NCBI RefSeq assembly: GCF_041248615.1
Contig: NZ_CP158425.1
Length of the DNA stretch: 64,000 nucleotides
Direction: 5' to 3' (one strand)
From: Escherichia coli
GTDB lineage: Bacteria; Pseudomonadota; Gammaproteobacteria; Enterobacterales; Enterobacteriaceae
The position numbers were made by a program. Positions 33,001 through 45,000 of the stretch are shown here, piece by piece (the first letter of the stretch is position 1; each line of letters begins with the position of its first letter).

Positions 33001-36000
33001 ACCATACTCTTTTATTTTCGCTATTAGGTATCATAGATATTCTCCTTTAGGCTATTATAGAAAGATTATTATAAGCGAAATTAATACCGTTAAACGCCAT
33101 GAGCCCGACAATTTTGAGCACTTTGTTTTGTACTCCCAGAAGCTCACCACTACAAATTATCATCAACCCGGTCCTTTTTTCAGTCCACTTGCGGTTTCAT
33201 TGTTACTTTGTCATAGCGTCGTGTCAGAATGCGGCAGAGAACAGCGTTTACTATCAACGCAACACCAGACCAGAAAAACCATGTATTAACACCTATAACC
33301 TCAACAACCGGACCTGCAACAAGTAAGCCTATCGGCATAGAAAGAGTCATGGCGGTCATCAAAAGGGAAAACACCTTGCCCATCATTTCAGGGGCAATGC
33401 TTTCTTGAACATAAGCCATAACAGGAACATTCATAAATGGGCACTGTTGCAAAGTTAGCGATGAGGCAGCCTTTTGTCTTATTCAAAGGCCTTACATTTC
33501 AAAAACTCTGCTTACCAGGCGCATTTCGCCCAGGGGATCACCATAATAAAATGCTGAGGCCTGGCCTTTGCGTAGTGCACGCATCACCTCAATACCTTTG
33601 ATGGTGGCGTAAGCCGTCTTCATGGATTTAAATCCCAGCGTGGCGCCGATTATCCGTTTCAGTTTGCCATGATCGCATTCAATCACGTTGTTCCGGTACT
33701 TAATCTGTCGGTGTTCAACGTCAGACGGGCACCGGCCTTCGCGTTTGAGCAGAGCAAGCGCGCGACCATAGGCGGGCGCTTTATCCGTGTTGATGAATCG
33801 CGGGATCTGCCACTTCTTCACGTTGTTGAGGATTTTACCCAGAAACCGGTATGCAGCTTTGCTGTTACGACGGGAGGAGAGATAAAAATCGACAGTGCGG
33901 CCCCGGCTGTCGACGGCCCGGTACAGATACGCCCAGCGGCCATTGACCTTCACGTAGGTTTCATCCATGTGCCACGGGCAAAGATCGGAAGGGTTACGCC
34001 AGTACCAGCGCAGCCGTTTTTCCATTTCAGGCGCATAACGCTGAACCCAGCGGTAAATCGTGGAGTGATCGACATTCACTCCGCGTTCAGCCAGCATCTC
34101 CTGCAGCTCACGGTAACTGATGCCGTATTTGCAGTACCAGCGTACGGCCCACAGAATGATGTCACGCTGAAAATGCCGGCCTTTGAATGGGTTCATGTGC
34201 AGCTCCATCAGCAAAAGGGGATGATAAGTTTATCACCACCGACTATTTGCAACAGTGCCCCTGCGGGTTCTGACTGGAAAGGGCGCTCAGATCGACACCA
34301 CGACTGCGTCCGGTCGCATGGTGTTCGGAATCTTCGCCACCTTGGCCGAGTTCGAGCGGGATCTGATCCGAGAGCGCACCATGGCGGGTCTCGCCTCCGC
34401 GAGAGCGCGCGGTCGCAAGGGCGGACGAAAATTCGCGCTCACCAAAGCTCAGGTGCGTCTCGCGCAAGCCGCCATGGCCCAGCGCGATACTTCAGTTTCC
34501 GATCTCTGCAAGGAACTCGGCATCGAGCGCGTCACTCTCTACCGATATGTCGGTCCCAAAGGCGAGCTCAGAGACCATGGAAAGCATGTTCTCGGACTTA
34601 CGTAGTGGACTTGCCTCGGTTTCGTTCCGGTCTTTTTGAGAGCATTATTTGTTATCAAGGAGACCATATATGTCATTAAAGCATAGTGATGAATTTAAGC
34701 GTGATGCAGTTCGCATAGCACTCACTAGTGGCTTAACACGCCGTCAAGTTGCGTCAGATTTAAGTATTGGGCTTTCCACGCTTGGGAAATGGATCGCATC
34801 AATTTCCGATGAAACTAAAATTCCTACCCAAGACACTGATCTTCTGCGTGAGAATGAACGTTTACGCAAAGAGAACCGTATCCTTCGGGAGGAGAGGGAG
34901 ATATTAAAAAAGGCAGCAATATTTTTCGCAGTACAAAAGCTGTGAGATTTCAGTTTATTACGGATTACCGTGGCTCTCTCTCACGTTCACGCATATGTCG
35001 TTTGATGGGCGTAACAGATCGTGGTTTACGTGCATGGAAACGCCGTCCTCCATCACTGCGCCAGCGTCGTGATCTTATACTTCTAGCGCATATACGTGAG
35101 CAGCATCGGTTGTGTTTGGGGAGCTATGGTAGGCCGCGTATGACAGAAGAGTTGAAAGCGCTGGGCCTGCAGGTTGGGCAGCGTCGGGTTGGACGTTTGA
35201 TGCGCCAGAATAACATTACAGTTGTTCGAACGCGTAAATTCAAACGGACAACGGATAGTCATCATACCTTCAACATTGCACCGAACCTATTAAAACAAGA
35301 CTTTAGCGCAAGCGCACCCAACCAGAAATGGGCAGGCGATATCACTTATGTTTGGACCAGAGAAGGATGGGTCTATCTTGCTGTTATCCTTGACCTGTAT
35401 TCCCGTCGCGTGATTGGCTGGGCAACAGGTGATCGATTAAAGCAGGATCTTGCATTAAGGGCACTGAATATGGCGTTGGCTTTACGCAAACCACCACCGG
35501 GTTGTATTCAACACACAGACCGTGGGAGCCAATATTGCGCTCATGAATATCAAAAGCTACTGCTCAAACATCAATTGCTGCCGTCCATGAGCGGGAAAGG
35601 CAATTGTTTTGATAACTCCGCAGTAGAAAGCTTCTTTAAATCATTAAAGGCTGAGTTGATTTGGCGCAGACACTGGCAAACAAGGCGAGATATTGAGATT
35701 GCAATCTTCGAATATATAAATGGCTTTTATAATCCACGCCGAAGACATTCAACACTCGGCTGGAAATCGCCGGTGGCATTTGAGAAAAAAGCCGCTTAAA
35801 ATGAGAGATAGACCGGAACACAACCGGTGCAAGTCCATAGCAACTCGTTTCTTTTCGCAGGTTGAGCCACCTCCGCGCTTCATCAGAAAACTGAAGGAAC
35901 CTCCATTGAATCGAACTAATATTTTTTTTGGTGAATCGCATTCTGACTGGTTGCCTGTCAGAGGCGGAGAATCTGGTGATTTTGTTTTTCGACGTGGTGA

Positions 36001-42000: not shown

Positions 42001-45000
42001 AGCAGCCGGTTGGCCGACGAAGAGTTCGAGCCAGGCTCGAACTGGCGCAGCCACACAAAACGGGTCACCCGATCATCAGCCGTCTCCTCGAGCAATGCCA
42101 GCAACTGTTCTCGGATCGACATAGGCAGCCGACTGGCGATCCTCGTCTCGATGCGTCGCTCGGCATCGACGAGAGCCGCGGCACAAAGCCGCTCGATCGT
42201 GGATGTCGCGGGAAGGACAGTGCGGGTGCGTCGGCACTCGGCTACGAAGCGACGGGCGATATCCTCGTTCGACACCGCCATCTCGGCTTCTCGGAACAAC
42301 CATTCCTTCAGCTCGCTCGCACCACGTCCGGAGAAGGTGCGGAAGCCGTAGAGCCCCCGTAACTCGGCAAGATGCTCGTGCCGTGTTTCCTCGCGGGCAG
42401 CATAGTCTACGAGATCGTCGGCACCCAGGCCAAGCTGCGCTCCGATAAATTCGATGACCTCTGCAGGGATCAGTTCGCCTGGAGCCAGCACCCGGCCGGG
42501 ATAGCGCAGGACACACAATTGCAGGGCGAAGCCGAACCTGTTGTGAGCGCGCCGACGCAGCCTGATATGCCCAAGGTCTTCATCACTCAGCGTATAGTGC
42601 TTGAGCAAATCCGTCTGTGAAGTCGGCAAGCGCAACAGCGCGTCTTTCTGCCGATCGGTTAGAGTGACGCGACGCGGCATACATGTTCCTTTTTCAAAAT
42701 CTGATAGCGTTCAAGACGCTTTGTTTATGAAGCTGGTTGAGATACATTTCCAGAGGTCAATGCAATCGTGGCCGAAGCGCCGCCTCAAACCAACGTTTGT
42801 GATACATGCTGATCGGATATGCCCGCGTCTCCAAAGCCGATGGCTCGCAGTCTCTCGACCTGCAGCACGACGCCTTGCGCGCCGCAGGTGTCGAACGGGA
42901 CAATATCTATGATGATCTTGCTTCCGGCGGTCGTGATGATCGCCCTGGCTTGACTGCCTGCCTCAAGTCATTGCGTGACGGCGATGTGCTGGTGGTCTGG
43001 AAGCTCGATCGCCTCGGACGATCGCTTGCCCATCTGGTCAACACGGTGAAGGAGCTGTCAGACCGCAAGATCGGCCTGCGGGTTCTGACTGGAAAGGGCG
43101 CTCAGATCGACACCACGACTGCGTCCGGTCGCATGGTGTTCGGAATCTTCGCCACCTTGGCCGAGTTCGAGCGGGATCTGATCCGAGAGCGCACCATGGC
43201 GGGTCTCGCCTCCGCGAGAGCGCGCGGTCGCAAGGGCGGACGAAAATTCGCGCTCACCAAAGCTCAGGTGCGTCTCGCGCAAGCCGCCATGGCCCAGCGC
43301 GATACTTCAGTTTCCGATCTCTGCAAGGAACTCGGCATCGAGCGCGTCACTCTCTACCGATATGTCGGTCCCAAAGGCGAGCTCAGAGACCATGGAAAGC
43401 ATGTTCTCGGACTTACGTAGCAACTCGTTTCTTTTCGCAGGTTGAGCCACAGAGGTGGATCAGGAAATTTGAACAACACTTATAAGTGATATTTTGCTCC
43501 CCAAATGATGTTATAAACATCAATATATGGAGTATTTTATGACACGTAGACCAAGAAGAAATCATTCAAATGACTTTAAAGCTAAGGTAGCACTTGCTGC
43601 GATTAAAGCAGAAAAAACACTTGCTGAATTGAGTGCTGAATTTGATGTTCATCAAAACCAAATTATTGACTGGAAAAATCAACTGATTTCAGCTTCCTCG
43701 CAAGCTTTCGATCAATCAAAAGCTCCAACAGAACCACCCATCGATCTAAAAAAACTACATGCAAAAATCGGTGAGCAGGCATTAGAAATTGATTTTTTAG
43801 AAGGTGTGTTGAAGAAACTGGGTCGCTTCAACCACAAAAGTTAATCGATGACTCACTTCAGATTTCAGTATCTAGGGTCAGGACCCATTGATTTGAACTG
43901 ACGGCTGTGATTCAGATGGGCGTATAGGAGCCCGACTGATGAGTAATTTGTTTTGGCTGACGGACGAGCAAATGGCTCGTCTTCAGCCCTATTTCCCCAA
44001 GAGCCATGGCCGCCAGCGCGTTGATGATCGACGCGTTCTGAGCGGCATCATCTTCGTCAACCGCAACGGGCTGCGTTGGCGTGATGCGCCGAAGGAATAT
44101 GGCCCGGCGAAGACGCTTTATAACCGCTGGAAACGCTGGGGCGACAAGGGCGTATTTATCCAGATGATGGAAGGTCTGGCCGTGCCTGAAGCCGCAGAGC
44201 ACAAGACCATCATGATCGATGCGACCTATCTCAAGGCCCACCGCACGGCTTCCAGCTTGCGGGTAAAAAAGGGGGCGCGGGCCGCCTGATTGGACGCACG
44301 AAAGGCGGCATGAACACCAAGCTTCATGCCGTAACGGATGCGAGTGGTCGCCCGATCAGCTTCTTCATAACGGCAGGCCAGGTCAGCGATTACACCGGTG
44401 CTGCCGCCTTGCTTGATGAACTTCCCAAGGCCAAATGGTTGCTGGCCGACCGTGGCTATGATGCCGACTGGTATCGTGACGCTTTACAGGCGAAGGGGAT
44501 CACTCCCTGCATTCCAGGTCGAAAATCCCGCAAGAAGACCATCAAATACGACAAACGCCGCTACAAACGGCGCAACCGGATCGAGATCATGTTCGGGCGT
44601 CTCAAAGACTGGCGGCGTGTCGCTACGCGTTACGACCGGTGCCCAATGGCCTTTCTCTCCGCCATCGCTCTCGCTGCGACCGTTATCTTCTGGCTATGAG
44701 CAATGAGTCCTGACCCTAGCGCATATCAAGCCAGAGGAGCCTGAGGTACTTGGTCTTTTAGCCCTCATGGAACTCCAGTGCTCTCGGCTGCTTGCCCGAC
44801 AAGATCGTCAAGGCTTGCCAGTGCCGCTCGATCGTCAGGATCGTGGCTTGTGGGATCGATTGCTCATACGTCGAGGTCTGGAGATAGTTGAGCGAGCATG
44901 CCGCATGTCGTCTCCCACTGGATGGTATCTTCTGCAAGCGTTGATTTCTGCTTGTCACGCGCGGGCTGCGAGCTTTCGAGACACCAATTGGCGAGAGATA

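Follow-up and report, generated by a model that had tools for sequence, protein, structure and literature searches.

A Tn5393 mosaic around an aphA1 transposon relic in an IncHI2 multiresistance region of Escherichia coli, probably built from two partial transposon copies

We analyzed a 64,000-nucleotide stretch of Escherichia coli DNA (contig NZ_CP158425.1, assembly GCF_041248615.1; the whole stretch is referred to here as the window) in which two 81-bp ends of the transposon Tn5393 face each other across the aphA1 (aph(3')-Ia) gene. Window position 1 corresponds to position 96001 of record NZ_LT599829.1, and positions 33000 to 45000 are 100% identical to that record (plasmid p14408_M1; IncHI2; E. 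coli NRZ14408) and to four other IncHI2 plasmids. The Tn5393 mosaic sits in an approximately 35-kb multiresistance region of the IncHI2 plasmid. Its gene order is tnpR'-IS1133-strAB-right inverted repeat (IRR), a spacer, and then left inverted repeat (IRL)-tnpA-res-tnpR. Positions 34260 to 49428 very probably consist of two different, incomplete Tn5393-family transposons in direct orientation around a 2,110-bp relic of an aphA1 transposon, and this confidence covers only the structural statement that different partial copies, two in number, surround a target relic; it does not extend to the step by which the structure arose. The component features, including insertion sequences (ISs), are as follows.

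33440 to 34259, minus strand: IS26 (820 bp), with 14-bp inverted repeats at 33440 to 33453 and 34246 to 34259; transposase annotated as WP_001067855.1
34260 to 34605, plus strand: 3' fragment of tnpR (346 bp; last 114 codons and stop codon), 100% identical to 43075 to 43420
34606 to 35837, plus strand: IS1133 (1,232 bp; IS3 family), from its junctions, IS1133 family annotation, and Pfam domains HTH_Tnp_1 and rve
35838 to 37570, plus strand: tnpR-strA spacer, strA, and strB, up to the inverted repeat (AMRFinder, 100% identity)
35906 to 36709, plus strand: strA (aph(3'')-Ib; AMRFinder annotation, 100% identity)
36709 to 37545, plus strand: strB (aph(6)-Id; AMRFinder annotation, 100% identity)
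37571 to 37651, minus strand: Tn5393 IRR (81 bp), outer terminus ...GACCCC at 37651, toward the spacer
37652 to 37776, no strand: end of an IS903-group IS (125 bp; the end beside the transposase start), starting with TTTAT directly at IRR
37777 to 39761, no strand: passenger DNA derived from Klebsiella michiganensis, ending with ATCAC directly at IRL
37881 to 38696, plus strand: aphA1 (aph(3')-Ia)
38850 to 39761, minus strand: C45/AAT-family peptidase gene (PF03417), first 37 codons gone
39762 to 39842, plus strand: Tn5393 IRL (81 bp), outer terminus GGGGTC... at 39762, toward the spacer
39795 to 42680, minus strand: intact tnpA, a Tn3-family transposase of 961 amino acids (Pfam DDE_Tnp_Tn3, 1.4e-143, and DUF4158; WP_001138082.1)
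42681 to 42805, no strand: tnpA-tnpR intergenic region (125 bp), putative res from its position between the divergent tnpA and tnpR; sole copy in the window
42806 to 43450, plus strand: intact tnpR (204 amino acids; 42806 to 43420; Pfam Resolvase, 6.7e-45) and 30 bp of the tnpR-strA spacer, placed by its junctions
43451 to 49428, plus strand: right copy continued as Tn5393g, with 99.9 to 100% identity and collinearity to pHHV35 (FJ012882)
48558 to 49415, minus strand: aac(3)-IIe

The two terminal repeats match at 77 of 81 positions, and this terminus occurs nowhere else in the window (two copies against 0 expected in shuffled sequences). The window IRL is 100% identical to the IRL of Tn5393g in pHHV35, both repeats are identical or near-identical to the Tn5393g repeats of that plasmid, and matches to strB plus IRR end at 37651 to 37654 in thousands of plasmids. 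The GGGG termini of both repeats point at the spacer (37652 to 39761), whose flanks, TTTAT (37652 to 37656) at IRR versus ATCAC (39757 to 39761) at IRL, share no 5-bp duplication. No contiguous IRL-tnpA-res-tnpR-strAB-IRR unit with outward termini and a 5-bp target duplication is present in the window, nor is a compound transposon bounded by Tn5393 copies, the sole two repeats both facing inward. Such an inward pair cannot bound a conventional transposon and formally delimits the whole plasmid minus the spacer. Because the order is permuted, the termini are inward, and the flanks differ (TTTAT versus ATCAC), we read the region as parts of two Tn5393 members and not of one; IRR and IRL face each other because each marks where a Tn5393 copy ends in one and the same target segment.

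A first-pass annotation of the window had already described the 81-bp ends facing across aph(3')-Ia, and the comparisons above bear this out. The features that it put first (i.e., an IS26-cut tnpR fragment, IS1133, strA, strB, and one inverted repeat) all lie at or within a few bases of the positions given there, its 2.1-kb segment measures 2,110 bp, the Ntn-hydrolase-like open reading frame in that segment is the C45/AAT-family peptidase gene, and the tnpA and tnpR that it called complete are intact. The 30 bp that it noted downstream of both tnpR copies fall within a 33-bp identical stretch that includes TAG (35838 to 35870 and 43418 to 43450). Its right element end at 43420 to 43450 did not hold, as the element is interrupted there and continues to approximately 49428.

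IS26 cuts the left copy inside tnpR, so that IRL, tnpA, res, and the tnpR 5' part are gone; what remains is IS1133, strA, strB, and IRR. IS1133 sits at the tnpR stop codon, with the target site duplication (TSD) TAG at 34603 to 34605 and 35838 to 35840. The left tnpR-strA spacer is uninterrupted (GCCAC directly followed by CTCC), and the left strAB arm is 99.94% identical to that of Tn5393g in pHHV35.

The right copy lacks IS1133 and carries a different insertion. Its stretch of the spacer ends with CAC at 43450, the TSD of the next insertion, and the end of an IS3-family element follows directly after ...GAGCCAC (AGAGGTGGATCAGG...; orfA, 43527 to 43844). This IS3-like element is thus inserted at 43450/43451, 30 bp past tnpR. 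In pHHV35 and pFAM21845_1, the element has the inverted repeats AGAGGTGG.../...CCACCTCT and the TSD CAC, and Tn5393 resumes past it at CTCCGCGC-strA. Within 43451 to 49428 lie the left end of the IS3-like element, ISKpn12 (from approximately 43870) cutting it, an ecf/DUF6596 gene, ISKpn11 (45780 to 47065), an AAA ATPase gene, and aac(3)-IIe; the right copy's own strAB-IRR arm is missing from the window. The internal insertions differ (IS1133 on the left, the IS3-like element on the right), and the copies therefore represent two different Tn5393 variants. Judged by its sequence, the right part is the left two-thirds of a Tn5393g-like transposon.

We compared both parts with known Tn5393 forms. 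Joining 39762 to 43450 with 35871 to 37651 gives 5,470 bp (6,705 bp with IS1133), and the joined sequence is contiguous in other plasmids (e.g., in one piece in NZ_CP068679.1). The comparison with reference Tn5393 that the first-pass annotation had suggested thus returned the canonical layout, in agreement with the summary in PMC10333595. Tn5393 sensu stricto (pEa34, Erwinia amylovora; IS1133-bearing) has in common with the window the 81-bp repeats, tnpA, res, tnpR, strA, strB, and IS1133 at the tnpR stop codon, and the 5,470-bp joined form is equivalent to Tn5393c/Tn5393a, which carry no IS. Unlike Tn5393, Tn5393c, and Tn5393a, the window holds no complete unit, and its two repeats come from different copies and face inward.

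Tn5393g on pHHV35 is tabulated in PMC10333595 as a variant with ISKpn12 and an aacC gene, and that paper credits it (FJ012882) to Heuer et al. (2009) as well as to Cain and Hall (2011). The sequence from IRL through tnpR into the IS3-like element is 100% identical between this transposon and the window over 4,113 bp (window 39762 to 43874), the insertion site (CAC) is the same, and ISKpn12, ecf, the AAA ATPase gene, and aacC2/aac(3)-IIe are collinear up to window position 49428. Tn5393g of pHHV35 possesses a second ISKpn12, the right part of the IS3-like element, and a strAB-IRR arm, none of which accompanies the right copy in the window. ISKpn11 lies between ecf and the AAA ATPase gene in the window but after aacC2 in pHHV35, and 234 bp of the IS3-like element beside ISKpn12 are absent from the window (43857 to 43890 versus pHHV35 37440 to 37710). 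On the basis of the missing 234 bp and the moved ISKpn11, the window therefore holds a distinct Tn5393g derivative. IRL adjoins the C45 gene in the window, whereas it adjoins rumB in pHHV35.

That the two parts overlap at 100% identity in 346 bp of tnpR plus the 33 bp beyond it, and join to exactly the 5,470 bp of canonical Tn5393c, would also be expected if a single Tn5393 had been permuted and the window ran across it; such a permuted form could be a tandem dimer, a circular transposition intermediate, or a cointegrate left unresolved with a circular target of 2.1 kb. We regard such a single element as very unlikely. The copies differ in IS content (IS1133 versus the IS3-like element/ISKpn12), TTTAT/ATCAC is not the 5-bp duplication that a circular-target cointegrate needs, only one res is present in the window, and no PLSDB carrier has a left res. 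Moreover, the arrangement is fixed in more than 100 unrelated plasmids and so is no transient intermediate, and Tn3-family elements transpose replicatively without free circular intermediates, which counts against a circular form. Of the earlier suggestions, two Tn5393 copies stood, given the different insertions and pFAM21845_1 (described below), while a tandem or circular intermediate found no support as the present structure, given the non-identical copies, the TTTAT/ATCAC flanks, and the single res; a circular deletion product may have been a historical step. Likewise, the term inside-out captured the geometry correctly but implied one rearranged element in place of two partial copies.

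Over 122 bp, the IS end of the spacer matches IS903B at 100% identity, and a single mismatch sits at its terminus (AAATCC versus AAAGCC); the 104 bp upstream of aphA1 carry a TTGTGT-17-TACATT promoter. The full C45 gene has 340 codons, and the plasmid copy begins at codon 38, exactly at the IRL boundary. An exact 24-nt pattern from the C45 gene had no match in genome contigs; a protein-guided scan of species-representative genomes then reached K. michiganensis DSM 25444, with 98% amino acid identity. At the DNA level, the spacer passenger is approximately 98% identical to K. michiganensis DSM 25444, and aphA1 and C45 are contiguous at approximately 98% identity in JQCU01000494.1 (labelled Acinetobacter idrijaensis). 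These matches indicate that the spacer is residual target DNA, left in one contiguous piece from an IS903-group aphA1 transposon that originated in K. michiganensis. The first-pass annotation had spoken of unrelated DNA captured between the ends; a contiguous aphA1-transposon relic abutted by both Tn5393 ends describes the segment better.

Three contigs carrying other taxonomic labels (JQCU01000494.1, Acinetobacter idrijaensis; UQMY01000041.1, uncultured Collinsella; NZ_JALKIL010000031.1, Anaerobiospirillum) contain aphA1-C45 DNA that is either K. michiganensis-like or 99 to 100% identical to the plasmid form. This DNA is probably due to contamination, mis-binning, or plasmid carry-over.

In the window, 104 bp separate the IS end from the aphA1 ATG, the distance in Tn903 as well. 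Downstream of aphA1, the window is of the C45 type, diverging from the Tn903 type at the stop codon. For IS102 in TnaphA1-pIE545, the corresponding distance is 116 bp according to Moran and Hall (PMC12670165), who in 2025 traced the aphA1 and C45 peptidase genes of that transposon to K. michiganensis (follow-up, PMC12802963). Compared by description, TnaphA1-pIE545 has the same promoter and gene content, with aphA1 beside an IS903-group end and C45 downstream (PMC12670165). In contrast to TnaphA1-pIE545 and Tn903, the window keeps only 125 bp of one IS, and its C45 gene is short of 37 codons; no pair of complete IS903-group copies with a 9-bp TSD encloses the segment in the window, the other end having been replaced by the Tn5393 IRL. 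The block (i.e., IRR, spacer, and IRL) thus preserves an IS903-associated aphA1 segment with the K. michiganensis C45 gene, a context untabulated in the 2025 aphA1-origin papers, and this context or the capture event may be absent from Table 1 of PMC12670165.

Other elements also link aphA1 physically to Tn5393 strAB. In Tn5393e, pTP10, and pJA144188, aphA1 lies inside one Tn5393, between IS26 copies, in tnpR or beside strB; unlike these, aphA1 in the window is external to both copies, sitting between their outer ends, and IS26 does not flank it. As functional analogies only, direct transposon repeats flank foreign DNA in an unresolved Tn3-family cointegrate, and an IS26 translocatable unit resembles a proposed circle made of a transposon and an adjacent segment (see below). 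The window differs from both in having no common 5-bp duplication, one res, and non-identical copies.

The block was detected in at least 139 PLSDB plasmids (2.6-kb stretch over both junctions; coverage of at least 80%) and in 111 of 5,426 complete E. coli genomes (approximately 2%), and its breakpoints are constant across carriers. No C45 segment extending beyond the IRL cut was found in PLSDB. These observations show that the block has a single origin and has spread widely. They also bear on a collapse or mis-joining of Tn5393/IS repeats in the p14408_M1 assembly, a concern given that the record is flagged linear and the region is rich in repeats (IS26 and the duplicated tnpR segment). The same junctions occur at 100% identity in many independent complete plasmids (IncHI2, IncF/ColV, and others) from several countries and hosts. 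Given 100% identity of the 12 kb in five further records and at least 139 plasmids with the block, assembly collapse can in practice be excluded, and we consider an artefact extremely improbable.

With a query representing a pseudo-left copy (res, tnpR, strAB, IRR, IS903 fragment, and start of aphA1), no PLSDB record was found in which res and the 5' part of tnpR are joined to the left arm plus block. Several candidates for a left res were rejected as unrelated structures or as artefacts of merging separate pieces: pTP10, pJA144188, and CP058868 carry IS26-aphA1-IS26 in or beside Tn5393, pF2_18C_HI2 has IS903B between tnpR and strA, and pECAZ147_2 has an unrelated IS903 scrap downstream. CP138724 was rejected as a carrier of the block.

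The outer boundaries vary among carriers. On the left, the window has IS26-tnpR'-IS1133, IS10 cuts IS1133 at the equivalent of window position 35749 in pSH163_120 (from a 2002 turkey isolate) and pFAM21845_1, and pSE08-00436-1 has an RSF1010-type sul2-strA junction. On the right, ColV-type plasmids such as pSH163_120 have an IS26 cut at 42914. In pFAM21845_1, the right copy retains tnpR, followed by an intact IS3-like element, by strA and strB, and by a complete IRR, beyond which lies an integron 5' conserved segment (5'-CS). This plasmid has two strAB arms in direct orientation, and the two-copy architecture is seen in it directly. Since the left-hand IS1133 and the right-hand IS3-like element occur in both the IncHI2 and the ColV lineages, the ancestral block already combined two variants.

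In pFAM21845_1 (20620 to 20640 and 10030 to 10040), the right-copy IRL is flanked by ATCAC (C45) and its IRR by ATCAA, followed by an intact integron 5'-CS/intI1. A degraded TSD (ATCAC versus ATCAA; match at 4 of 5 positions) was considered and rejected, as ATCAA is contiguous with the intact 5'-CS. We read this right end as having come from a Tn5393 in a class 1 integron, swapped in by recombination.

Two further carriers deserve mention. At the sul2/strA breakpoint of pSE08-00436-1 (approximately 3995 to 4005), the Tn5393 match begins at window position 35874, 3 to 4 bp from the IS3-like insertion site of Tn5393g (equivalent to 35870/35871; 43450/43451 in the window); this proximity may be a coincidence or a local hotspot. 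E. coli CFS3273 carries the block on two plasmids, NZ_CP026934.1 and NZ_CP026933.2 (145 kb and IncHI2 268 kb), which is consistent with recombination moving the block between coresident replicons.

Spread of the block would be passive, by plasmid transfer, by IS26/IS10 events, and by exchange of its outer parts when homologous recombination takes place in strAB or tnpA. The block would persist since every carrier has lost the left res and tnpA, leaving the resolvase without a second res and the facing repeats unable to delimit a conventional transposon. The Tn3-family serine resolvase TnpR would resolve two res sites in direct repeat, and the stability of the block may be explained by the survival of only one res in every examined carrier.

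As to how the two copies first met, we assign slightly less than an even chance to the simplest route, that of two independent insertions into the aphA1 transposon; trimming of an unresolved cointegrate by deletions appears improbable. Several points weigh against our interpretation. Target immunity is typical of Tn3-family elements and, if Tn5393 shares it, would make another insertion only 2 kb away from a resident copy less likely. Searches of PLSDB, JGI metagenome contigs, and complete E. coli genomes yielded neither reciprocal junction (i.e., IS903...TTTAT joined to IRL, or IRR joined to ATCAC and the C45 5' end; k-mers at the junctions, GATGAGGGCTTTATGGGGTCGTTTGCGG and GCAAACGACCCCATCACCGTTTGCC), which means that the ancestors are unsampled. 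The account of stability through loss of res depends on known serine resolvase behaviour, and no paper explicitly describing the block was found in the library searched.

A more elaborate, possible but rather unlikely origin starts with a Tn5393 resident in IS903 (TSD, TTTAT), whose intramolecular transposition, in the deletion orientation, hit the C45 gene; the non-replicating circle so released (Tn5393 plus the 2,110 bp) would then have recombined, by homologous or res x res exchange, with a second Tn5393 variant on a plasmid under kanamycin selection. The outcome would be two hybrid copies in direct orientation around the spacer. Such a rescued circle predicts the direct orientation, a spacer made of one contiguous target piece, and the non-matching TTTAT/ATCAC flanks, and it sidesteps cis target immunity. 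The IS markers (IS1133 left, IS3-like right) fit a single crossover, and the right IRR of pFAM21845_1 is flanked by the integron 5'-CS (ATCAA-intI1) in place of the C45 5' end, as would follow from a resident copy located in an integron. However, this origin requires three events and a second Tn5393 in the same cell, its reciprocal product (a Tn5393 between IS903...TTTAT and ATCAC-C45 5' end) was not found in the three data sets named above, and two insertions followed by recombination explain the same observations equally well.

We treat as doubtful the broader proposal that the block is the fossil of a Tn3-family deletion circle, in which Tn5393 excised itself with the adjacent 2.1 kb carrying aphA1 and was then rescued. 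If true, such a fossil would reveal a capture route for flanking genes similar to that of the IS26 translocatable unit but driven by a Tn3-family element. It is still less likely that the inward IRL/IRR pair and intact tnpA mobilise or fuse the whole plasmid by inverse transposition.

The components are all named elements, the arrangement is present in more than 100 annotated public records, and the mosaic, already frequent on resistance plasmids of E. coli and Salmonella, is ordinary for a multiresistance region, not a new kind of element. We thus regard it as already known, a status that rests on the annotated records and the known component elements, as no explicit paper was found. The main consequence is for annotation: where Tn5393 ends face inward on resistance plasmids of E. 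coli and Salmonella, they should be taken to mark two partial variants meeting around an aphA1 relic and should not be read as a rearranged or active element. Gene content and annotation point to a function of passive linkage, joining resistance to streptomycin (through strAB, upstream of which lies IS1133), to kanamycin/neomycin (through aphA1 and its own promoter), and to gentamicin (through aac(3)-IIe). The block links the first two resistances, often together with that to gentamicin, on IncHI2 and ColV-type plasmids from food animals and humans. Given this physical linkage, its spread, and its fixed breakpoints, the block is therefore useful as an epidemiological marker.

Within the multiresistance region, a Tn1721-type tet(A) region lies upstream of the mosaic together with a sul3-type class 1 integron, the last parts of which are mef(B)-delta and IS26, and ISKpn12, ISKpn11, aac(3)-IIe, blaTEM-1, and IS1 lie downstream. 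The integron (approximately 24000 to 34259) comprises estX, psp, aadA2, cmlA1, aadA1, qacL, an IS256-family/IS440 element, sul3, truncated mef(B), and IS26; the IS26 that closes it is the same one that cuts the left Tn5393 copy. A 104-nt direct repeat (16567 to 16670 and 40422 to 40525; 73% identity) relates Tn5393 tnpA to sequence just upstream of the tet(A) region and may be a remnant of another Tn3-family tnpA.

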